DNA from: an uncultured Verrucomicrobiota bacterium | GTDB taxonomy: Bacteria; Verrucomicrobiota; Verrucomicrobiia; Palsa-1439 | Reading direction: 5' to 3' | Length of the DNA stretch: 30,862 bases | Assembly: GCA_964574605.1 (NCBI GenBank) | Contig: CAZNOK010000037.1 | Location: 1-30,862 of the forward strand | In this document: one piece after another, positions 10,394-30,862 of the stretch | How the letters are laid out: every line of letters starts with the position of its first letter | Numbering within the stretch: the first letter of the stretch is position 1 | Program-made: the position numbers and the translations under genes | Notes under the pieces: model-generated | Seen by the model: only the letters and a program-made list of their open reading frames with translations | Told to the model about the DNA's origin: nothing | Database searches by the model: none

Positions 10394-10617
10394 GCGGAGC
10401 GGCGCGGACGGCGCGCGAAAACCTTGCTGGCGGGAATGCCTTGGACGCGTCCCTTGCGAATATCCTCCACACGACGGGCAATCTCAGCGTCCCAGTGCCT
10501 CTCCACATCGGCATCGCTCTCGGTGTCCAGACTCTGAATCAACGCGTGCGCCAGCCGTGCCCGTCGTTCCACCGGCATCCGCAACGCCTGTTCGGTCAAA
10601 GCTGCTGCTGTCTTCAT
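10390..10617 (-). CDS. Antitoxin, putative addiction-module component (TIGR02574-like), paired with the RelE/ParE toxin.
   Basis: MKTAAALTEQALRMPVERRARLAHALIQSLDTESDADVERHWDAEIARRVEDIRKGRVQGIPASKVF has the family pattern (ER..LA..L..SLD...E.E..W..EI.RR..EI..G.V..IP...VF). It is 75 aa from ATG 10617; an alternative ATG is at 10629. Confidence 0.7.
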   Translation of the reverse strand: MKTAAALTEQALRMPVERRARLAHALIQSLDTESDADVERHWDAEIARRVEDIRKGRVQGIPASKVFARRPRRSA

Positions 10618-10775
10618 CGCCGCCAACATACCCGTTCCCACCAGCGTGCTCAAGCTTGTTTTCTCCACCACGCCGTTGCCAATGATTACGAAGCACGTTG
10701 ATCGGCGTGTTGGCGTTCACCTCCTCTCGAACTTTGCAGTTGAATCCTGAACATTCACAATCAATACTTGCTGGC

Positions 10776-11066
10776 ATGAACTGGTACTCAATCACAATCA
10801 CAAAGAAGATGCTCTTGCAAGGCGCCCTTCACACCTTCCAAGAAAAGTATATGCGGCTCCGCGATGCAGCCGATTTTCCCTCGGACATGGCACTCTTTGC
10901 TGGTAGGCAACCTGAATTACAGGACACCTACTACTTCCCACGGTCATCGTCACAGGCAGAACTTCCGTTGGTTTCAGAATACAAAGCAGTGGCCTGCGAA
11001 AGACCGCGGAAGGGCGAAATGATACTGTTAGTCGGCAACGACAAATCGGATCTTCTTTTGGGCTAG
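10776..11066 (+). CDS. Hypothetical small protein (97 aa) in the low-GC island, convergent with the T5orf172 gene.
   Basis: ATG at 10776 (MNWYSITITKKMLLQGALHTFQEKY...). Local GC content is lower than the surrounding core. No recognisable domain and no clear Shine-Dalgarno site. Confidence 0.3.
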   Translation: MNWYSITITKKMLLQGALHTFQEKYMRLRDAADFPSDMALFAGRQPELQDTYYFPRSSSQAELPLVSEYKAVACERPRKGEMILLVGNDKSDLLLG

Positions 11067-11111
11067 TTCAATCGGCAACTACAAACCTTGTTGGTCAGCA
11101 CGTTTGGCTTC

Positions 11112-12146
11112 TCACATAGGCTTTGCATTCCATTTGAGCCGCCTACAGGCGTTTCGCCGGTAATCCTTGATCAACCGATTGAATATTTTGGCCACCCACG
11201 CGGAATTCTCGGATGCTTCTTTGCCAACATATCCTTTCCCCGCTGGCCAAGACCGATAATGAAATTGAACATGCGACCAAAAGCCTAAGTCATAAGATCT
11301 CTCGCCAACAGGATACTGGCTCCTAAAGGAATTCACGCAGCGCCACACCCATTCGACCATGTCGCCTAAGAAGTCAATCCTCACTGCACCGCCATACGCC
11401 ACCCACAAAACGTGAGGCCCATTCAGATCATCGCAAGCCGCCAGCAAATCGCGAAGTTCCACCATTCTCGGCTTATCTTCGAGACTAAGCGAAAACTGTC
11501 GTTCAGCCCAAGCTTCTTCGGTGAATATCAAGTCGCAACACCCCAACGTCTTGGGGCGAATCACCATCTGATCCAGAAACTGACGAGCATTTTGGAACAT
11601 GCCTTTTTCGGGCGAGAAGAGATCCTTCCCATCACCATTCTTTGCAGTTAGTTTCAGACTGTTTTGCGTGAAGCGACCAGAGTGATCTATCTCTGTAATC
11701 TCCACCCACAGTGCGCTCTCCCGGCGTGACAGACGGATGGAAGCGATGCTCTGCTTCACTTCCGTCTTGTAGTACTCACGGATTTCGGGAAGAAGGTCAT
11801 AGATGTTCCTTCTTGCGACTTCATCCCTGAGACCTTTGATGGTGTCTTTCAAGGGCATCCAGAAACATTCCCGGTCTTGATGATAACGGTGCTTTGCGAA
11901 GCGTTCGTGCAACCGTTTCTCCACTTCGAAGCAGTCATCTACAAATTCTTCGTAGGCCACTCGCCAAGCTGTTGGGACTCCTGATCCGCGCGAGATCTCC
12001 GCTGCTCGTTCTTCGGACTTGTTGATTGTTCGTCCAATCTTCACGATGTCCTTCATCGCTGGGTTAATCAGCACATACACATAGCCAGCGCGTTTCTCTT
12101 CAGCTATGGCTGGTTTTTGCCGCTTCCGTTTCATTCTCCTTTTCAT
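11112..12146 (-). CDS. T5orf172 (GIY-YIG superfamily, MUG113-like) domain protein with an about 230-aa C-terminal domain of unknown function.
   Basis: The N-terminus GYVYVLINPAMKDIVKIGRTINKSEERAAEISRGSGVPTAWRVAYEEFVDDCFEVEKRLHERFAKHRYHQDRECFWMPL matches the T5orf172 domain pattern. An AAGGAGA Shine-Dalgarno site precedes the ATG at 12134; the ATG at 12146 is also possible. The gene lies in a low-GC region. Confidence 0.8.
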   Translation of the reverse strand: MKRRMKRKRQKPAIAEEKRAGYVYVLINPAMKDIVKIGRTINKSEERAAEISRGSGVPTAWRVAYEEFVDDCFEVEKRLHERFAKHRYHQDRECFWMPLKDTIKGLRDEVARRNIYDLLPEIREYYKTEVKQSIASIRLSRRESALWVEITEIDHSGRFTQNSLKLTAKNGDGKDLFSPEKGMFQNARQFLDQMVIRPKTLGCCDLIFTEEAWAERQFSLSLEDKPRMVELRDLLAACDDLNGPHVLWVAYGGAVRIDFLGDMVEWVWRCVNSFRSQYPVGERSYDLGFWSHVQFHYRSWPAGKGYVGKEASENSAWVAKIFNRLIKDYRRNACRRLKWNAKPM

Positions 12147-12320
12147 CAGCTAGGGAAGGAGGAGGGTGGTTTTCATCCCGGTGAGCAGTGTGCCCAACGC
12201 TTTCATGGCGGCAGGATAGGCACCGGCACAACGAAGGTCAAGACGTTGGTTGAGGGTGCGATTCCGGTCTGCTCCTATCCGCGTGTATCGGCGGTTCCAT
12301 TTCGCTGCACACGCGATTTC

Positions 12321-14243
12321 TCATTGGTTGAAATCCAAAACGAGTTTCTGGGTTCCTTTCTGAACGGTCACGACGCCTTTGCCAAAGTCAGCTTGGATGA
12401 AGGGGCTGTCATAGACGCGCGGCGGGGCGTAGTTCAGAGGTTGGCCGTCCACCAACGGCGGACGCGAGTAGTCGGCGAACAATGTGAGCGTGGTCTTGTT
12501 CAGGCGACTGGTGTAGTCGAGACGATTCTTCTCCCAACGCAGCGGGTTTGCGAGCGTTGCGCGCTGAAACTCGGCGAAGCTCGCACAGTCAGCCTTGCGC
12601 ACGACTTCGATGATGACCGGCGAGAATTCGTTGACGCATTTGAGCCACTCGCCGGTGTCGGTCGCGCCTTTCTTCTTTCGGTGTTGCTCGATGGTGTCCG
12701 GTTCCCATTCAGTGCCGCCGTGAACAACGCGCACGGCAGCGAACGCCTGCGGCGCTTCGGCGAACACCCAGCCGTTCGTCTCGGCCCGGCGCAACGCGGC
12801 GTCGAACCAGAGTCGCTGTCCTTTGGCGGACTTGTGCGTTTTCAGGCGTTGGATGATGAGGACGCCGCGTTTCTGAACCGACCAATGGGCGTTATAGACG
12901 CTGCCGCGTTTGGGTGTCAGCGGTTGAGTGAAGATGCGCGCGGTCGGATGCCCGGCGAAGATCACGCCTTCCCAACGGTTCTGGCTGCTGATCGCGGTCC
13001 AATCGTCCAATGGACGGGCTTCGACCATGCTCGTGCCGATCACGAAGTCCGGCGTGCAATACGTGTAGCGGAGCAATCCTCCGCCGTCAGGACGCAACGG
13101 GTAAATGCCTTGTGGGACATGAAACGGATGCTTGGGGTCACTCACGTAGTTTACCGGCGGCACATTGGCCTTGAGTCCGGGCCGGCGCGAGACGTACTCA
13201 TAAATGCCACGCCCGGCGACATCAAGTGCAAGCTCCGAAACAACCGGCGATGGCCGCCAAAAGGTCGTTGCGGCGCACATTGCTGATGGATGCTGGCTCT
13301 TTTCACGACCGAGGCCAAAATGAAACCACGCCACGCCGTCCATGCCGGAGCCGTCGGTCGAGTCCCTGCCGGGGTAGCAACGGTGACGGCTGCCGCCGCG
13401 AACGCCGTTGATCTGTTCGATGGCCCAATCGGCCCAAAACAGGTCGAGCAGCATCGCGTACCGCCGGCGCAACACGGGGTCGTCGGCGAAATCGGCGAGG
13501 TTATACCAGCCGCCGAGTGTGTATTTGTTGTAGCCGGAGTTGCACTCGACAAGCAGTCCTTTCGCGGCGCGTTCGCGGGCGTGACGCTTGAAGTATTCGT
13601 TGAACGCGGTCGCCATTTGTGCCGGTGTTGTGCCGTCGGCGTAGCGGCGATTCTTGTAGTCGGGATGTTTCGCAAAAATTTGTGCCGCGCCCCAGAAGCT
13701 CGACCACGCCTGTGCGTGATGGTTCTCGCTGCCCCATTTCCACCAATCGCGTTCCGGCAACGTCATCTCCAATCGGCACCGCGGCCCAGCCCATTGCCAG
13801 AGCATGTCGAGCAACGCCGCCTCGGCCTCGGCGCTCATGCGGCCGGGGAAATGTTTGCTCGCGCGGCTGAAAAGAAAATAGATGCGTTCCAGAATGTAGG
13901 CGTGCCAATGGAAGTTGCCGATCTTGAGAGACTCGGGAAACGCCTTTTGTCGCTCGGTGAGGATCGCCTGATCGCCCTTTGCTCGATCATCCAGCCAGTA
14001 AGCCGCCAACGCGAGATCCTCGTAATGCCAGCAGCCTTCCTCCGGATACGGGCGTTCCAATTGCGCGTGCATCACGGCGTCGCGTCGCACATCCTGTTCG
14101 TCGCGCGCCTCCGAGTTGTAGCCGCGAGCCTGCTCGCGGTGGGTGTTGGCGGTATTCGTTTCCCGAAGGCCGCAAGCAGGCTCGCGGCTACAGTCACTGG
14201 CGAGAGCGGCGACGAATGTTATCGCTGCAAGAATCGCGTTCAT
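12321..14243 (-). CDS. Secreted hypothetical protein of 640 aa, possibly an (alpha/alpha)-toroid polysaccharide lyase or hydrolase (heparinase II/III- or GH127-like?).
   Basis: ATG at 14243 (MNAILAAITFVAALASDCS, a signal peptide) overlaps the upstream stop (ATGA). The protein is large and Trp-rich, consistent with a carbohydrate-active fold. Family cannot be assigned from sequence alone. Confidence 0.75.
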   Translation of the reverse strand: MNAILAAITFVAALASDCSREPACGLRETNTANTHREQARGYNSEARDEQDVRRDAVMHAQLERPYPEEGCWHYEDLALAAYWLDDRAKGDQAILTERQKAFPESLKIGNFHWHAYILERIYFLFSRASKHFPGRMSAEAEAALLDMLWQWAGPRCRLEMTLPERDWWKWGSENHHAQAWSSFWGAAQIFAKHPDYKNRRYADGTTPAQMATAFNEYFKRHARERAAKGLLVECNSGYNKYTLGGWYNLADFADDPVLRRRYAMLLDLFWADWAIEQINGVRGGSRHRCYPGRDSTDGSGMDGVAWFHFGLGREKSQHPSAMCAATTFWRPSPVVSELALDVAGRGIYEYVSRRPGLKANVPPVNYVSDPKHPFHVPQGIYPLRPDGGGLLRYTYCTPDFVIGTSMVEARPLDDWTAISSQNRWEGVIFAGHPTARIFTQPLTPKRGSVYNAHWSVQKRGVLIIQRLKTHKSAKGQRLWFDAALRRAETNGWVFAEAPQAFAAVRVVHGGTEWEPDTIEQHRKKKGATDTGEWLKCVNEFSPVIIEVVRKADCASFAEFQRATLANPLRWEKNRLDYTSRLNKTTLTLFADYSRPPLVDGQPLNYAPPRVYDSPFIQADFGKGVVTVQKGTQKLVLDFNQ

Positions 14244-24817: not shown

Positions 24818-27166
24818 TCACATGTGCTCTGTCCGGGCGATGATTTCTTCCTGCATGTCGGGCGTCAGGTTCACGAAGAACTCGCTGAAACCGGCGACGC
24901 GCACCACCAAGTCACGATATTGTTCGGGATTCTTCTGCGCGGCGCGCAACGTCGCGCTGTCCACGACGTTGATCTGCAATTCCTGCCCACCGTTCTGGAA
25001 ATAGACGTTCAACATCGCGCGCAGTTTCTCGCGCTGACCGGCGTCGGCGATCATGCCGGCGTGGAAACGGATGTTGACCTGATAGGCGCACTGCCAACTC
25101 TTCGCGGGGTTGAGCTTGCAGACGGAGTTCAACACCGCGGTCGGGCCGGTGCGCTCGCAACCGACCGAGGCCGCGACGGAACTCGCCAGCGGCGTGCCCG
25201 CGAGCCGTCCATCGGGTGTCGCCGACGTCACGCGGCCTTGTTTGACCGCGCCACTGCGGACGACGTGGCTGTTGCCGAACTTGCTTCCATCGCGCGGGTC
25301 GCGACAGATCGCCTTCACCGGCTCGTCGCGCAACTGCTCGACCAGCGTGATGATGTCATCCAATTGCGGATCGTCGTTGCCGTGCTTGCCCGCGGCGCGC
25401 AGCTTGGCGCGGAGACGCTCGTGTCCCTCGAAATTGACGGCGCAGGCTGTCGCCACTTCGTCGAGCGTGGCCAGTTTCTTTTGATAGACGATCTCGCGCA
25501 CCGCGGCGATGGAATCCACCGCGTTGGCGAACCCGATGCCGCCGCAGGAAAGGATGTTGTATTTCGTACCCTGCGCCATGTCGCGTCCGCGCTCGATGCA
25601 GCCGTGGAAGAAACACGAAGTCAACGGCGTCACGCCCCACTCCATCTGCGCCTTCAACACCTGCATCTCTCTGGCGTACGACTGTTCGATTTGACGCCAC
25701 ATGTAAGCGCCGATGGCGGAAGCAAAATGGTTGAACGTCTTCAACTCGTTCACCAGCGGCGCGACCTTGTTCCACTTCCATTGTTTCTTGTAGCCTTTGC
25801 CGTTGGTGAGCGTGGCCTCGATGGCGGCGAGGTAGGCGATGTTCGCGCCGGGGTTGTAATAGCACTGGCCGGGCACGGCGAGTTCGTTGCAACCGACGGG
25901 CACGTAGTTGAACGCGTCCTCGCGCGACACGCCGAGCGCCATCAACCCTTCCGGCACGACCTTGTCGTTCCACATCATCGGGAAACAAGTCGTCCGCGCC
26001 AGCCGCGTCAGGCAGAAATCGAAAAACTTCTGGTCAATCTTCGGATGCCAACGAATCCAGACCAACGGCTCCGGCAACGCCATGTTCGTCGCGCCTTCGA
26101 TCATCAACCAACTCAGCTTGTTCGTCAGGTCGCGGCCATCCGGCGTCGAGCCGCCCACGACGAAGCCCTGCGTCAAGTGATGCTCCGGTCCCCAGTATGT
26201 GTTGTCGAACATCTTCAACACGAAATTCTCGACAAGCCGCACGACCTCGGCGTCGTCGAGCTTGTCGGCCTTGTAGAACGGCAACAACAACTGATCGAGC
26301 CGGTCCGGCGTGCACGAGTAACCGTGCCCCTCGATGTGAATCGCTTGATGCGCGAGCCAGACCAGTTGCAACGCCTCGCGGAATGTTTCCGGCGGTTCCG
26401 ATGCGATCTTCGCGCAAATCCGCGCCATCTCGGGGTCCTTCACGAACTTGCTGTAACGTTTCGCCCACGCGGACAGCCCCGCGAGCGTGTGTTCCGCCGC
26501 CGTGAGGAACGCGAGCTTCTCGGCGTCGGTCTCGCCCTGGCGCCGCGCCGCCACTTTGCGCCGCAAGCCGCCAATGCCAACGCGCAGCAACTCGCTGTAG
26601 CTCGGACAGAGATGTCCTTGATTCGAGATGAACTTGTAGCCGGGGTTCTGCTTCAACTCATCGTGACTCTTGACCTGCTTTTGCCCGGCGATCTTTGTCC
26701 GGAACAAGCCCCACATGTTCCGGTTCGCCCAATACTCGCGGATGTCTTCCGGCACTTTGCCCTTGAGGTAATCAGCGCGGTCGGGGCGTTCGCCGGTGTA
26801 GATGTTGTTGTCCGCGATACCCAGCTCGACCAGCAACGGCATCGCGCCCGGCTTCTCGCTGATTGAACCGGCGATGCGGTCGTGCGGACGCAGGTAGAGC
26901 GGCACTGTCTCGAAGTATTCGCGCAATGCCATCGCCTTGCGGACAATCCACGGCTCGCTTTCGTGTTGCTGGAAAACTTTCGTGAAGACCCTCGCCCGGT
27001 GCAACGCCACGTCAACCGGCGAATCCATCATCGCCTTTCGCAATGCCGCCATGTCCGCATGAGGCGTCTGCATTGCCGCATCCGCCGAGCGGACCTTACC
27101 GAAAACAATCAGACCGCCAGCCGTCATCCCGGCGGCTGCCAGAAACTCACGCCGTGAAATGTTCAT
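24818..27166 (-). CDS. Glycyl radical enzyme of the 1,2-eliminase class (Cys-x-Glu active site) carrying an N-terminal twin-arginine (Tat) signal peptide.
   Basis: 782 aa. The C-terminal glycyl-radical motif is VRVAGFSEFFVNLTPDMQEEIIARTEH (compare PFL RVSGY...LT..QQ.VI.RT.H). The catalytic loop PVGCNELAVPG has a single Cys followed by Glu, which is eliminase type and not PFL type. The N-terminus MNISRREFLAAAGMTAGGLIVFGKVRSADA|AMQ has an SRREFL motif, an h-region and an AxA site. A standard GRE N-terminal domain begins at about residue 40. ATG at 27166. Confidence 0.88.
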   Translation of the reverse strand: MNISRREFLAAAGMTAGGLIVFGKVRSADAAMQTPHADMAALRKAMMDSPVDVALHRARVFTKVFQQHESEPWIVRKAMALREYFETVPLYLRPHDRIAGSISEKPGAMPLLVELGIADNNIYTGERPDRADYLKGKVPEDIREYWANRNMWGLFRTKIAGQKQVKSHDELKQNPGYKFISNQGHLCPSYSELLRVGIGGLRRKVAARRQGETDAEKLAFLTAAEHTLAGLSAWAKRYSKFVKDPEMARICAKIASEPPETFREALQLVWLAHQAIHIEGHGYSCTPDRLDQLLLPFYKADKLDDAEVVRLVENFVLKMFDNTYWGPEHHLTQGFVVGGSTPDGRDLTNKLSWLMIEGATNMALPEPLVWIRWHPKIDQKFFDFCLTRLARTTCFPMMWNDKVVPEGLMALGVSREDAFNYVPVGCNELAVPGQCYYNPGANIAYLAAIEATLTNGKGYKKQWKWNKVAPLVNELKTFNHFASAIGAYMWRQIEQSYAREMQVLKAQMEWGVTPLTSCFFHGCIERGRDMAQGTKYNILSCGGIGFANAVDSIAAVREIVYQKKLATLDEVATACAVNFEGHERLRAKLRAAGKHGNDDPQLDDIITLVEQLRDEPVKAICRDPRDGSKFGNSHVVRSGAVKQGRVTSATPDGRLAGTPLASSVAASVGCERTGPTAVLNSVCKLNPAKSWQCAYQVNIRFHAGMIADAGQREKLRAMLNVYFQNGGQELQINVVDSATLRAAQKNPEQYRDLVVRVAGFSEFFVNLTPDMQEEIIARTEHM

Positions 27167-27203
27167 GTCTATTCTTATAGCACAATTCCTTCTGCTAGAG
27201 TAG

Positions 27204-27224
27204 TCGTCTCGCTCTGCGAGACGA
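27204..27224. promoter_or_regulatory. Perfect 9-bp-stem hairpin TCGTCTCGCtctGCGAGACGA in the divergent intergenic region between the GRE and SPFH genes.
   Basis: Inverted repeat with a 3-nt loop, about 40 nt upstream of the GRE ATG (minus strand) and about 190 nt upstream of the SPFH ATG. Confidence 0.4.
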
Positions 27225-27416
27225 TGCTTGGCAAGCTCAGTTCCTGTAGCCGCACCCTATCCCGGTGCGCGGAAAACGCAGGCATGAAGCCCTGGTCGCC
27301 TACGACGCCGCCAAAGGCGGGTAAACCTGCGGCTACGAGCAGCGTCTTCACCAGCAATTCTGCGCTTGTCACGTCCATCCCGCCGGGCGTATTCTCCGCG
27401 CTGAAGGAGGCTAAGC

Positions 27417-28448
27417 ATGGCGATTATAGACCGCATCAAGTTCGACGCGCCCTCGGATGAATGGTTGGTGTGGAAATACCAAACCAATGAAGCAAACCGG
27501 GAAGAGGAAATTCGCATAGGCGCGCAACTCGTCGTGAATCAGACGCAAGAAGCACTGCTGGTCAAGGGCGGCCAAGCTCTTGATCTCTTTGGGCCGGGAA
27601 CTCACACTCTCGCCACCGGCAACATTCCGCTACTTCGGAAGCTCATCAATCTGCCATTCGGCGGGCAAACGCCTTTCACCGCCGAAGTTTGGTACATCAA
27701 CAAACACGCGAAGCGCAATCTACGCTGGGGCACAAGGACACCGATCCCCCTGATTGACCCGGTCTACAATTACCCGGTCAGCGTTCGCGCCTATGGGCAA
27801 TGGGGAATTCGCGTTGAAGATTCGCAACGGCTGATCACGCAACTTGTCGGCACGCTCCGCGAGCTTCGCAGCGATAAGATTAACGACTACTTCACTGGCG
27901 AGATTTTGCAGCGGTTGTCCGACGCGCTATCGAAGTACTTTGTCGAAAAAGGCGTATCCGTCTTTCAGGCCAACGCAAGACTGAACGAGTTTTCACAGTT
28001 CGCTGCGGATGCGATCCGCGCCGAGTTCAAACGGTTTGGCTTGGAGATCGTTAACTTCAACGTTGAGAGCATCAACATCCCAGACGAGGAAAAGAAGAAG
28101 TTCCAAGAAGTTCTCGGCAAGCGGATGGAGATCGAGCAGGTCAGCAAAGTGCAAGTCGGTCAGGCTTACACTACGGCGCGCACATTTGACGTGCTCGAAA
28201 AAGCTGCGAGCACGGAAGGTGGTGCCGCAGGAAATTTGTTGGCGGGCGGATTGGGATTGGGCATCGGCCTTGGCGCTGGCGTGCCGGTTGGCCAGCAGGT
28301 CGGGCAAGCCATGAACCCGCAACCAGCAAAATCCGACGGAGAAGACGCGATGACTAAACTGCAAAAGCTCAAACAAATGCTCGATGCCGGTCTGATTACA
28401 GAAGATGAGTTCAAGACTAAAAAGAAGCAAATCCTCGACGCCATGTAG
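27417..28448 (+). CDS. SPFH (band-7, COG4260/YdjI-like) domain protein with a Gly-rich linker and a C-terminal SHOCT domain.
   Basis: 343 aa. A strong Shine-Dalgarno site (AAGGAGG) lies 6 nt upstream. The N-terminus (W.W........LVVNQTQEALLVKGGQALDLFGPGTHTLATGNIPLL...AEVWYIN) fits the COG4260 SPFH family. The C-terminus MTKLQKLKQMLDAGLITEDEFKTKKKQIL is a SHOCT motif. GC content is lower than in the core. Confidence 0.8.
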   Translation: MAIIDRIKFDAPSDEWLVWKYQTNEANREEEIRIGAQLVVNQTQEALLVKGGQALDLFGPGTHTLATGNIPLLRKLINLPFGGQTPFTAEVWYINKHAKRNLRWGTRTPIPLIDPVYNYPVSVRAYGQWGIRVEDSQRLITQLVGTLRELRSDKINDYFTGEILQRLSDALSKYFVEKGVSVFQANARLNEFSQFAADAIRAEFKRFGLEIVNFNVESINIPDEEKKKFQEVLGKRMEIEQVSKVQVGQAYTTARTFDVLEKAASTEGGAAGNLLAGGLGLGIGLGAGVPVGQQVGQAMNPQPAKSDGEDAMTKLQKLKQMLDAGLITEDEFKTKKKQILDAM

Positions 28449-28484
28449 AAACTTGGAACCTAGATTAAGAGTCGAAGGAGAATT

Positions 28485-29348
28485 ATGCCCAAAGAGACGA
28501 TAAGTTGCCCCAATTGCGGGTCGCCAAAAGTTCAGGAGTTTAAGACGGACACATTCGTTTGCCAAAACTGCGATGGAACATTCAAATGGACTGACCCGAC
28601 CAAGCAAGTGGTCGAACACAAGGGGGAAGTGAGTCTCAAGTTGGAGTTACAGGATTGTGCTTTCTGCGCTGAGCAGGGAAGATTTCGACCAGCGACTCAA
28701 AAGTGTCCTGTCTGTGATCAAGCTTTTTGCTCGTCCCATAGAGCAAAGGAGCTATCCAAGGATTTGGTGGGAGATCATCTCAAGATTATGCGTGGCAGCC
28801 GGCTAGACGCACTCTTTGAACAAGTTGAAGATGACAGAGAGCTTCTGAGTATTCGTGGGCTAGAGGAAGAGGACTTTGACCAGTACATTGGGCCGATTTA
28901 TGAAGATGTTCAGAATAAACTCGGTGGTGCTGTCACTTGTGCACAATGTCTTGGCGAGGCCATTCGTCAATCAGCAGGTATGTATGGAAAGAAATGCCCG
29001 ATATGCGGTCACGGTTTCGATTACGAAGACGAAGCTAATTACGGAGACTCCAGCTTGCAGCGATGCACGGGTTGCCGAGCATGGCCGGTTCACAACGATT
29101 GTCTTGTTCCCGTCCATGATCTGAAAGGCAAAAACAAAGAATCTCACTCCCTTTGTCTGAAATGCCTTTCACCTGGAGAAGAAATTAAGACTTTGTTCGG
29201 TCGCAGTTACGATCCACCAAAATGGAAAACAGTGAACCGTACGTATGAGATAAGTGGGTCTGTGATAGGAACGGTGCGCATGTATTCCTACCTAGTAAGC
29301 CAAGGCCAGTCATCTCAGAGGTTCCAGATTCAACCAAAAGTATCGTGA
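28485..29348 (+). CDS. Protein with four zinc ribbons, no other recognisable domain, possibly YdjG-like.
   Basis: 287 aa. AAGGAG Shine-Dalgarno site 7 nt upstream. Four CxxC...CxxC pairs: CPNC/CQNC, CAFC/CPVC, CAQC/CPIC, and CTGC.../CLKC. The gene starts 36 nt after the SPFH gene, so it is probably co-transcribed. Confidence 0.75.
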   Translation: MPKETISCPNCGSPKVQEFKTDTFVCQNCDGTFKWTDPTKQVVEHKGEVSLKLELQDCAFCAEQGRFRPATQKCPVCDQAFCSSHRAKELSKDLVGDHLKIMRGSRLDALFEQVEDDRELLSIRGLEEEDFDQYIGPIYEDVQNKLGGAVTCAQCLGEAIRQSAGMYGKKCPICGHGFDYEDEANYGDSSLQRCTGCRAWPVHNDCLVPVHDLKGKNKESHSLCLKCLSPGEEIKTLFGRSYDPPKWKTVNRTYEISGSVIGTVRMYSYLVSQGQSSQRFQIQPKVS

Positions 29349-29378
29349 CCATTTCGCCTTGGAAAAATATTGCGTGGA

Positions 29379-30047
29379 ATGAACACTGAACTAATGTCGT
29401 TGTGCCGATCAGTCGCCTCCCGCCTCTGTCAACTGCCTTCTGAGAAGTTGTCGCCTTTTCCGGACGGCACAACGCTTTTGTTTCCTACACGCAGGACTTC
29501 CAAGAAAGCATCCGATTACCGGGCAAGCGAAGCCGAGGCCAGAATCCTCTTCTGCCTCGAACTTGCGAGCCGTGGCTTTCCTTTTGCCGTCGAAGTTCCT
29601 ACTCGTAAGACGTACAAGTTCAGAGGTGCGACGGAGATGAGTGCGCGAACGGATGTTGTTGTATTCTCTCGAAGTGGAGGCCGAGAATTAGCAGTTGAAT
29701 TCAAAGCTCGCCCTGCCGAGGACCGATCCATTACGAAAGACATTGAGAAGTTGGTCAGGGAGGGATACGACGGTCTCTGGTTTCATCTGTTACAGAATGT
29801 GAACTCTCGCACCTTGCGATCCTTGTTTTCCAAGTTCACCAGTGCATTCACCGAAACAAGCGAAAAACACCCCAGCCGTCGCCATAATCTCACGTTCGTA
29901 TTCGTTGTCAGGAAGAAGAGGTTCTGGCTTCGTAAGACGATTTCCCCGAACGATAATCCTTCTTTGGCGTTCGACTTCGAATACAAACTTCGCCCCGGCA
30001 AGATTGAGGTAACGAACGCTCATGGCTGGGAATACGAGCCTCTCTGA
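29379..30047 (+). CDS. Hypothetical protein with a PD-(D/E)xK nuclease-like core motif.
   Basis: ATG at 29379 (TTG at 29370 is also in frame). The segment EAEARILFCLELASRGFPFAVEVPTRK...ARTDVVVFSRSGGRELAVEFKA fits the restriction-endonuclease-like order of a helix Glu, then a beta-strand Asp (TDVVVF), then E-x-K (EFK). It starts 31 nt after the Zn-ribbon gene. Confidence 0.6.
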   Translation: MNTELMSLCRSVASRLCQLPSEKLSPFPDGTTLLFPTRRTSKKASDYRASEAEARILFCLELASRGFPFAVEVPTRKTYKFRGATEMSARTDVVVFSRSGGRELAVEFKARPAEDRSITKDIEKLVREGYDGLWFHLLQNVNSRTLRSLFSKFTSAFTETSEKHPSRRHNLTFVFVVRKKRFWLRKTISPNDNPSLAFDFEYKLRPGKIEVTNAHGWEYEPL

Positions 30048-30081
30048 AGTTGTCAACTCCTGACTCTGGACAAATCTCTCA

Positions 30082-30202
30082 GAGCGTGTTTGGAAACTCG
30101 CTGCTGGTGTAGCGGCGTTTGTGTCAAACGCCGAATTCCGTGGCCAATTAACAAATCGGCGCTTCGCAGAAGCGCCGCTACACCACTTTTCAAACACGCC
30201 TC
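30082..30202. repeat. Nested palindromic element. Outer imperfect inverted repeat is GCGTGTTTGGAAA...GGTGTAGCGGCG / CGCCGCTACACC...TTTTCAAACACGC. Two inner hairpins are CGGCGTTTGtgtCAAACGCCG and CGGCGCTTCgcaGAAGCGCCG.
   Basis: The structure can be seen directly in the sequence. The core between GGTGTAG and CTACACC is about 79 nt (tRNA-sized), but it does not fit tRNA anticodon or T-arm geometry. It lies between the island's third gene and the DUF2281-like gene. Confidence 0.5.
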
Positions 30203-30435
30203 GGTTAACCTTGCGGCGCGTTTTTGCTGATGCTAGCAGTGCTAGGCATCGGCGTTGTGTTTGCTGCCATTACCCCTCAGCGTCTCGTCGGACTCGGCTT
30301 CTCCTCCGCTAAAGCTACGGCGGACAAGTCCGGCTGGAAGACGTTGAGCCACTTGGCAGGATCGGCTGTGTCCGTATTTATGGTGGCATTCGGTCGGGCA
30401 AGGTGGTAATTTTCCACGAGAAAGGAGGAGAACAG

Positions 30436-30645
30436 ATGAGTGTCGCCGAGAAAATTGTCGAGCATGTGAAAGTGCTGCCGGAGTCGGTCCAGACGCAGGT
30501 GCTGGAGTTCGTCGAGTTTCTGGAGGCGAAGAACCTCAAGGACGATGCCGACTGGTCTCGCTCATCCCTCGACAGCGCGATGCGCGGTCTCGAAGGTGAA
30601 TCGTCGCCGTACTCCGAAGCCGACCTCAAGGAAGTATTCTCGTGA
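30436..30645 (+). CDS. DUF2281-like antitoxin.
   Basis: ATG at 30436 is preceded by AAAGGAGGAG. MSVAEKIVEHVKVLPESVQTQVLEFVEFLEAK matches the DUF2281 pattern (LP...Q.EVL.FVEFL). The stop overlaps the next ORF's GTG (GTGA). Confidence 0.65.
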   Translation: MSVAEKIVEHVKVLPESVQTQVLEFVEFLEAKNLKDDADWSRSSLDSAMRGLEGESSPYSEADLKEVFS

Positions 30646-30809
30646 TTCGGGCAGGACAGGTTGTCCTGTTCCGTTTTCCCCAAGCTGACCAAGCCGCTGG
30701 CAAACTGCGGCCAGCTCTCGTGCTGCGCCAAGCACCGGGCCGGCACAACGACTGGCTAGTCTGCATGATCTCGCTGCAACTCGACGCCGAAATCTTCGTC
30801 GGCGTATAA
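30642..30809 (+). pseudogene. MazF/PemK-like toxin N-terminal ORF. It is 55 aa and ends at TAA 30807, so it is probably truncated, although a short functional variant cannot be excluded this close to the window edge.
   Basis: VIRAGQVVLFRFPQADQAAGKLRPALVLRQAPGRHNDWLVCMISLQ resembles the MazF/PemK N-terminus (G.VV.V.FP......K.RPALVL......D.....ITS). Full-length family members are about 110 aa. The window ends 53 nt downstream, so a frameshifted continuation cannot be assessed. Confidence 0.35.
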
Positions 30810-30862
30810 GATGCTGGCGTGGGCGATAAGCACTTGGGCGAAGTCGGCGTAGATTTGCCACG

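Follow-up and report, generated by a model that had tools for sequence, protein, structure and literature searches.

Three adjacent genes, here termed g1, g2 and g3, lie at one end of a 30,862-nt stretch of DNA from an uncultured Verrucomicrobiota bacterium (GTDB lineage Bacteria; Verrucomicrobiota; Verrucomicrobiia; Palsa-1439; contig CAZNOK010000037.1 of assembly GCA_964574605.1), the whole of which we refer to as the window. An original prediction, made from the letters alone, had combined their products, an SPFH scaffold, a zinc-ribbon sensor and a nuclease, into a single candidate defence or abortive-infection module. Our analysis favours, with a probability of roughly 0.7, two independent units whose adjacency is confined to this lineage: a membrane-scaffold/adaptor pair, g1–g2, and a solitary endonuclease-like gene, g3. 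The pair is conserved in other genomes; g3 travels between genomes by itself, as a single gene. The three co-oriented, closely spaced open reading frames (ORFs) of the original prediction are present on the plus strand (Table 1), with an intergenic gap of 36 nt between g1 and g2 and of 30 nt, or 21 nt using an alternative TTG start of g3, between g2 and g3. No terminator-like site was found in the 36-nt and 30-nt gaps, and because g3 begins this closely behind g2 without a terminator, the three genes are probably co-transcribed here.

The g1–g2 pair and its wider operon

The g1 product is, as predicted, an SPFH protein ending in a SHOCT motif. Its Band_7_1 match reached 165.8 bits against a gathering cut-off of 24 and covered profile positions 7–205 of 211, and the match to SHOCT, a C-terminal two-helix motif of 28 residues, scored 38.1 bits (cut-off 27). 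Band_7_1 is the domain most commonly combined with SHOCT (PMC3581485), and this architecture of PF13421 plus PF09851 is exactly that of g1, without any domain-level difference; no experimental study of it was found in the literature searched. A clear transmembrane (TM) helix is absent from g1, the sole marginal segment being a Gly-rich linker within GGAAGNLLAGGLGLGIGLGAGVPVG that is possibly a membrane-associating or low-complexity segment. Members of the 90% cluster of g1 carry the JGI label 'membrane protease subunit (stomatin/prohibitin family)'. Scanning a genome collection with g1 yielded relatives in metagenome-assembled genomes (MAGs) assigned to Acidobacteria (89% amino acid identity), Lentisphaerae (69%), Bacteroidetes (66%) and an unclassified bacterium (64%), as well as relatives at 28–32% throughout Flavobacterium.

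The closest copies are 93% identical in amino acid sequence (loci L014 and L048, the latter copy, P0149, being located in L048–L050), followed by the Acidobacteria copy in L021. At the nucleotide level the window is 86% identical to L048, 83% to L021 and 82% to L014, limited to the SPFH gene and its Shine–Dalgarno (SD) site: the homology block, window positions 27397–28451, begins 10–20 nt before the g1 start (~27397–27407) and ends at the g1 stop codon, and the DNA on both sides of it is unrelated among the window, L048, L014 and L021. The genes downstream of the block behave differently, as the adjacent g2 homologue of L014 is only 38% identical to g2, and L048 has a different partner set altogether. 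Because homology stops at the g1 stop codon and 93% identity in g1 stands against 38% in g2, we regard the SPFH gene as a sharply bounded conserved block whose partners diverge or are exchanged. This asymmetry between scaffold and partner hints that the Zn-ribbon partner sets the specificity.

The second gene encodes a Cys-rich protein with 18 cysteines. Its CxxC motifs number eight (residues 8/26, 58/74, 152/171 and 194/224) and form exactly the four CxxC...CxxC pairs, and nothing else, that had been described for it. No hydrophobic segment was detected (Kyte–Doolittle maximum 0.61), so that g2 is predicted from its sequence to be soluble, and no further domain was found. Searches of Pfam, NCBIfam, PADLOC and PHROGs returned nothing for g2 beyond weak Zn-ribbon matches, the Pfam Zn_Ribbon_TF match to its N-terminus (7.5e-4, 19.4 bits) remaining under the cut-off of 29. 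The AlphaFold2 model had an overall predicted local distance difference test (pLDDT) score of 74, with 80–97 for the N-terminal module except for a linker block at residues 41–50 (70). It predicts the N-terminal ribbons with confidence, contains a helical middle part and additional small Zn-binding β elements, and shows no enzyme fold.

A word-indexed search with g2 returned only its own copy and the relative P0019, indicating that g2 is rare. In an exhaustive phmmer search its N-terminal module turned out to be common to 126 cluster representatives, mostly over residues 1–50 or 1–90, 24 of which match the Pfam profile; only four of the 126 (P0019–P0022) are full-length relatives, and these share every Zn-binding Cys/His position. 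Roughly 11 of 125 proteins with this module carry a TM-like segment, often C-terminal (P0028, P0031, P0033 and eight others), and five bear HEAT repeats; from these varied bodies, the module is best described as an N-terminal 'head' on differing bodies.

To assess the linkage of g1 and g2, we counted full-length g2 relatives with readable upstream sequence. A gene encoding Band_7_1 plus SHOCT lies directly upstream on the same strand for P0020 (L014/L015), P0021 (L016–L018) and P0022 (L019/L020), and phmmer confirmed these upstream products as g1 homologues with E-values from 1e-138 to 1e-214. For P0019 (L012), a 30-residue upstream fragment aligns to the C-terminus of a membrane protein described below, as in L015. 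Since every full-length g2 relative with upstream sequence follows an SPFH-SHOCT gene, g1 and g2 are a conserved pair.

The pair is a reduced form of an operon that is widespread across phyla and whose usual order is SPFH-SHOCT protein, a ~252-residue protein with about four TM segments (~4-TM partner), Zn-ribbon protein and TM protein, as seen in L021 (Acidobacteria MAG), L022 (Lentisphaerae MAG), L023 (Bacteroidetes MAG), L024 and L048. The ~252-residue protein, in which about four hydrophobic segments can be recognised, matches nothing in Pfam and occurs in L014–L018, L021–L024 and L048. The third gene encodes a ~200-residue protein with an N-terminal Zn ribbon and TPR (ZnR-TPR), with double-zinc-ribbon (DZR) proteins in L023, and the fourth a TM protein that sometimes ends in SHOCT. 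A g2-type protein stands in place of ZnR-TPR in L014/L015 together with the ~4-TM partner and in L016 together with a short version of it, and in L019 and the window it is alone with g1.

Two further observations concern these loci. The fourth-gene product (L021 2571–3488; L022 2422–3189; L048 6621–7340) has two N-terminal TM segments, and that of L021 ends in a SHOCT very similar to that of the SPFH protein, which suggests SHOCT-mediated contacts within the operon module. Just 3' of the g2 homologue, L014 (3011–3078) and L015 (2998–3065) contain an inverted 68-nt fragment of the SPFH gene on the minus strand, 82% identical to window positions 27738–27805, which points to rearrangement of these loci in the past.

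The functional link of g1 with g2 and its likeness to the Bacillus pspA-ydjGHI arrangement, already proposed in the original prediction, are supported. The linkage is kept in L014/L015, L016–L018 and L019/L020. The soluble SPFH protein of B. subtilis, YdjI (SamI), is brought to the membrane by YdjG, which carries a Pfam TF_Zn_Ribbon domain, and YdjH, both of them membrane proteins, and in turn recruits PspA (PMC8581546; PMC9239133; bioRxiv 10.64898/2026.02.06.704340). In both cases the gene for a Band_7-type SPFH protein that lacks a TM anchor neighbours one for a protein with a TFIIB-type Zn ribbon at its extreme N-terminus (the first ten residues of YdjG are MIISYKCPNC, as read from a primer in PMC8581546), and the related loci of g1 share with ydjGHI a multi-pass membrane protein encoded between or beside the partners. 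The sub-threshold Zn_Ribbon_TF match of g2 does not demonstrate homology of its ribbon with YdjG. For the ~4-TM protein, the likeness to YdjH consists in being a multi-pass membrane protein only. The systems differ at the C-terminus of the SPFH protein, SHOCT in g1 versus a Zn finger in YdjI (PMC8581546), and in gene order, the SPFH gene being first here and last in Bacillus. By analogy, the way in which g1–g2 may work thus resembles the YdjGHI module, of which we do not claim it to be a member.

The same asymmetry between scaffold and partner bears on an alternative in which a conflict or defence function resides in g1–g2 itself, with or without the membrane partner: a highly conserved SPFH scaffold would be paired with a Zn-ribbon sensor that diverges fast or can be swapped, and g3 would be unrelated. 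Besides the divergence or exchange of the partners in L014 and L048 and the exact end of nucleotide homology at the g1 stop codon, this reading can draw on the 89–93% identical g1 copies in contigs with unrelated flanks, one of them an Acidobacteria MAG, and on the low-GC island with toxin–antitoxin (TA) genes nearby, here and in L022. Yet in L048 and L049 the genes around the canonical operon are ordinary metabolic ones, neither g1 nor g2 has an effector domain or a PADLOC match, a viral-contig scan found no relatives of g2, and YdjGHI/SamGHI, the sole experimentally studied analogue, has roles in envelope stress and development, not in defence (PMC8581546; bioRxiv 10.64898/2026.02.06.704340). 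We consider a conflict role of the pair unlikely.

The g3 family and its genomic neighbourhoods

No sequence matches for g3 were obtained in Pfam, NCBIfam, PADLOC, PHROGs or PDB, and comparing g3 profiles with PDB chains yielded nothing meaningful. Relatives numbered 17 in a word-indexed search and 216 protein clusters in a profile search, all of them hypothetical and devoid of Pfam domains, with sources including Atribacteria, Thermodesulfobacteriota, Proteobacteria and a cultured Aneurinibacillus. Residues E51, E72, D92, E107 and K109 are invariant in the 17 close as well as in 31 diverse family members, and K124, W134, H136 and K152 are further invariant positions.

The structural model of g3 contains the α-β-β-β-α-β core fold of the PD-(D/E)xK superfamily, with E51 located on a helix, E72 on strand 1, D92 on strand 2 (86–96) and E107-F-K109 on strand 3 (102–109). 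Judged by strand position, this motif fits the PD-(D/E)xK pattern of an Asp in β2, (D/E)xK in β3 and often a helix Glu, corroborating the layout of helix-E, strand-D and E-x-K noted from the sequence. As the invariant residues fall where the catalytic constellation is expected, the fold call is supported at the superfamily level. The closest solved folds are those of DUF820/Ava_3926 (3ot2), OkrAI (3odh), BstYI, BglII, BamHI and NucC. While alike in the core fold and in the invariant E...D...ExK constellation, g3 has no sequence-level relation to a solved chain or to a Pfam, NCBIfam or PADLOC family, and has in addition a helix at the N-terminus, a disordered linker and a β-rich extension at the C-terminus. 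On the basis of this model, g3 is predicted to be a newly recognised member of the PD-(D/E)xK superfamily, belonging to an undescribed family and not assignable to any specific one.

The neighbourhoods of g3 were analyzed for genes that accompany it. Six homologues looked up singly all had unrelated neighbours: a 306-residue protein without likeness to g2 plus DUF2283; HU plus GIY-YIG; an island of WYL, ARPP-1, SNF2 helicase and DUF1156 methyltransferase, which makes L005 a defence-island-like setting; MazE-PIN; a RAMA-domain protein; and further proteins of no assigned family. A metagenome scan added 80 loci, and g1 and g2 accompanied g3 only in L051, which is 99.6% identical to window positions 26437–30854; as L013 is likewise an identical copy, the trio is confined to copies of the same sequence (99.6–100%). 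Dereplication of the g3 contexts at 85% identity gave 48 groups, 47 of them independent and non-self, with upstream sequence of at least 900 nt in 37 and at least 2 kb in 24. In none of the 47 was a g1-, g2- or ~4-TM-type gene found beside g3, and conversely g3 was absent downstream of the g2 relatives in all g2-relative loci examined. No neighbour family recurred in more than 3 of the 48 dereplicated groups, and a Pfam and PADLOC census of 149 g3 neighbours was mixed, comprising housekeeping enzymes, PIN/nucleotidyltransferase TA genes and few defence-candidate matches. Nothing suggests more than a mere insertion of g3 beside the g1–g2 pair.

The structural neighbours OkrAI, BstYI, BglII, BamHI and NucC would also fit g3 as a classical type II restriction–modification endonuclease, or as a cyclic-nucleotide-activated NucC-like effector, with its partner encoded elsewhere. 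Such a membership was rejected, given that neither the neighbour families nor the census contained linked partners: a methyltransferase was not among the 25 most frequent neighbour Pfam families (the commonest in 3 of 149) nor near g3 in the window, and genes of cyclic-oligonucleotide-based anti-phage signalling (CBASS) or CRISPR were not linked either. We therefore judge this assignment improbable. In its genomic behaviour only, g3 is closer to solitary type IV-like restriction endonucleases, which are likewise single genes that are patchy across phyla, with variable neighbourhoods and sometimes defence-island surroundings; it shows no homology to Mrr, McrBC or similar families, and a reader domain for modified bases was not recognisable. 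A stand-alone metal-dependent DNA endonuclease is the most likely prediction for g3, given the fold, the set of invariant residues and the scattered occurrence as a lone gene. A viral-contig scan found no g3 relatives.

The same contexts decide on the three-gene abortive-infection or defence system proposed originally, with g1 as scaffold, g2 as Zn-ribbon sensor and g3 as nuclease effector. The tight co-oriented arrangement, the low-GC stretch with a TA pair alongside, a g3 nuclease fold with intact catalytic-type residues and the defence-island-like setting of some g3 relatives such as L005 all speak for it. Co-occurrence across unrelated genomes was not seen, however, and it is here that the trio hypothesis fails: g3 has other neighbours in all 47 contexts that are not copies of the window, and 93%-identical g1 copies carry quite different downstream genes. 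Furthermore, the search with PADLOC-DB v2 hidden Markov models (HMMs) gave no match for g2 and g3 at E-values up to 1 and one chance-level match (0.029) for g1, leaving a defence or abortive-infection role of the module without direct support; for g3 specifically, such a role stays conceivable. We hold the single three-gene system to be very improbable. Least probable of all is that an SPFH-SHOCT protein and a variable Zn-ribbon partner make up an unrecognised membrane-based anti-phage module with a captured, co-transcribed g3 effector, in which assembly or disassembly of the scaffold would gate DNA cleavage.

Composition and flanks of the region

The low GC content of the region, predicted at about 50% beside a 63% core, was measured at 50.8% for positions 27417–30047 and 59.7% for the remaining window; the flanking metabolic genes have 57–63% GC and 66–82% GC at third codon positions (GC3). 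The respective GC/GC3 values are 54/65% for g1, 48/46% for g2 and 51/57% for g3, and the differing GC3 values are compatible with separate histories of the three genes. Strong SD sites had been assigned to all three genes; they are present at g1 (AAGGAGG) and g2 (AAGGAG), whereas g3 has none. A weak sigma-70-like match lies upstream of g1; such consensus matches are not significant (3 sites observed versus 1.9 expected in shuffles).

Downstream of g3, the structured palindrome and the TA pair announced by the original prediction were both recovered (Table 1), the latter with a truncated toxin. The palindrome is nested, its arms 30105–30137/30153–30185 lying inside 30084–30096/30187–30199, and is single-copy within the window. 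Rfam contained no family for it, nor for anything else in 27000–30862; it is possibly a bidirectional terminator or an element resembling repetitive extragenic palindromes or miniature inverted-repeat transposable elements (REP/MITE-like). At most ~50 nt past the toxin ORF, the sequence breaks off in this contig as well as in the independent assembly L051, which suggests that a repeat or insertion sequence (IS) element interrupts the PemK/MazF-like toxin gene.

Table 1 Features of the g1–g2–g3 region in window coordinates
Feature	Position	Strand	Details
Sigma-70-like promoter match, weak	27366..27395	+	TTGTCA-18-TATTCT; divergent intergenic region upstream of g1; consensus match only
g1	27417..28448	+	343 aa; Band_7_1 SPFH protein ending in SHOCT; no Cys
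Band_7_1 SPFH domain of g1	27498..28109	+	aa 28–231; PF13421, 1.4e-48
Gly-rich, marginally hydrophobic linker of g1	28236..28292	+	aa 274–292; Kyte–Doolittle peak 1.62 versus threshold 1.6
SHOCT domain of g1	28356..28436	+	aa 314–340; PF09851, 1.2e-9
g2	28485..29348	+	287 aa; Cys-rich, four CxxC...CxxC sites; 36 nt 3' of g1
Conserved N-terminal double Zn-ribbon module of g2	28485..28754	+	aa 1–90; MPxExxxCPxCGS...CxxC..FKW, then CxxC..CxxC..C..H
g3	29379..30047	+	222 aa (225 aa from alternative TTG start at 29370); 30 nt 3' of g2
Nested imperfect palindrome	30084..30199		116 nt; 3' of g3; fold −61 kcal/mol, z −6.65
DUF2281-type antitoxin gene	30436..30645	+	PF10047, 1e-5, exactly at gathering score; flanking, outside the module
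PemK/MazF-like toxin ORF, truncated	30642..30809	+	55 aa; covers profile positions 2–48 of 109

The other genes of the window encode sulfatases, glycoside hydrolases, oxidoreductases and a glycyl-radical enzyme. The latter (24818–27166, minus strand) is similar to pyruvate formate-lyase (PFL-like, 6e-108, plus Gly_radical), and its N-terminus, MNISRREFLAAAGMTAGGLIVFGKVRSADA, resembles a twin-arginine signal, with the Pfam match not beginning until residue 42; export of a glycyl-radical enzyme, if true, would be unusual. A second low-GC patch (~50%) at 10500–12500 contains an ORF (11112–12146, minus strand) for a T5orf172/MUG113 (GIY-YIG-like) domain protein, probably another acquired gene.

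A model of the two units and its implications

SPFH proteins form oligomers at membranes. In the two-unit reading, g1 would accordingly be expected to assemble into SPFH oligomers on the cytoplasmic side of the membrane, and g2 would bind g1 as an adaptor or sensor that couples the scaffold to a client or a stress signal, as conserved adjacency and the YdjG/H/I precedent suggest. Because no membrane partner is encoded in the window, membrane contact would be made either via the Gly-rich segment of g1 (aa 274–292) or via a protein encoded elsewhere. The g3 product would act alone as a metal-dependent DNA endonuclease, for example as a solitary modification-dependent restriction-type or selfish nuclease.

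Several points weigh against this picture. The ~4-TM membrane partner of the related loci is absent here, and g2, in contrast to the membrane-integral YdjG, lacks a TM helix, so that membrane recruitment in the style of YdjG/H is not directly transferable. A PspA domain was found neither among the scanned window ORFs nor among the genes called in the related loci, while pspA is linked in Bacillus. The independent contexts of g2-type genes number only four, and the g2 HMMs (A2, A4) miss the ZnR-TPR and DZR partners in L021–L024, homology among the Zn-ribbon partners being undetected; the 'Zn-ribbon partner' theme may be convergent. With regard to g3, the Foldseek E-values are weak, 2.4e-3 at best, and nuclease activity is predicted only. 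Finally, a functional coupling of g3 with g1–g2 that is specific to this lineage could exist.

Separating the two units removes a tempting candidate for a three-gene defence system. On the side of the pair, it draws attention to Band_7_1-SHOCT proteins, common but unstudied, that are paired with Zn-ribbon partners and usually with a ~4-TM protein, extending the YdjI/YdjG/YdjH logic well outside Firmicutes and without PspA. On the side of g3, it delineates an undescribed, Pfam-less PD-(D/E)xK family of 216 clusters with single-gene movement across phyla, the members of which could be solitary restriction-type nucleases.

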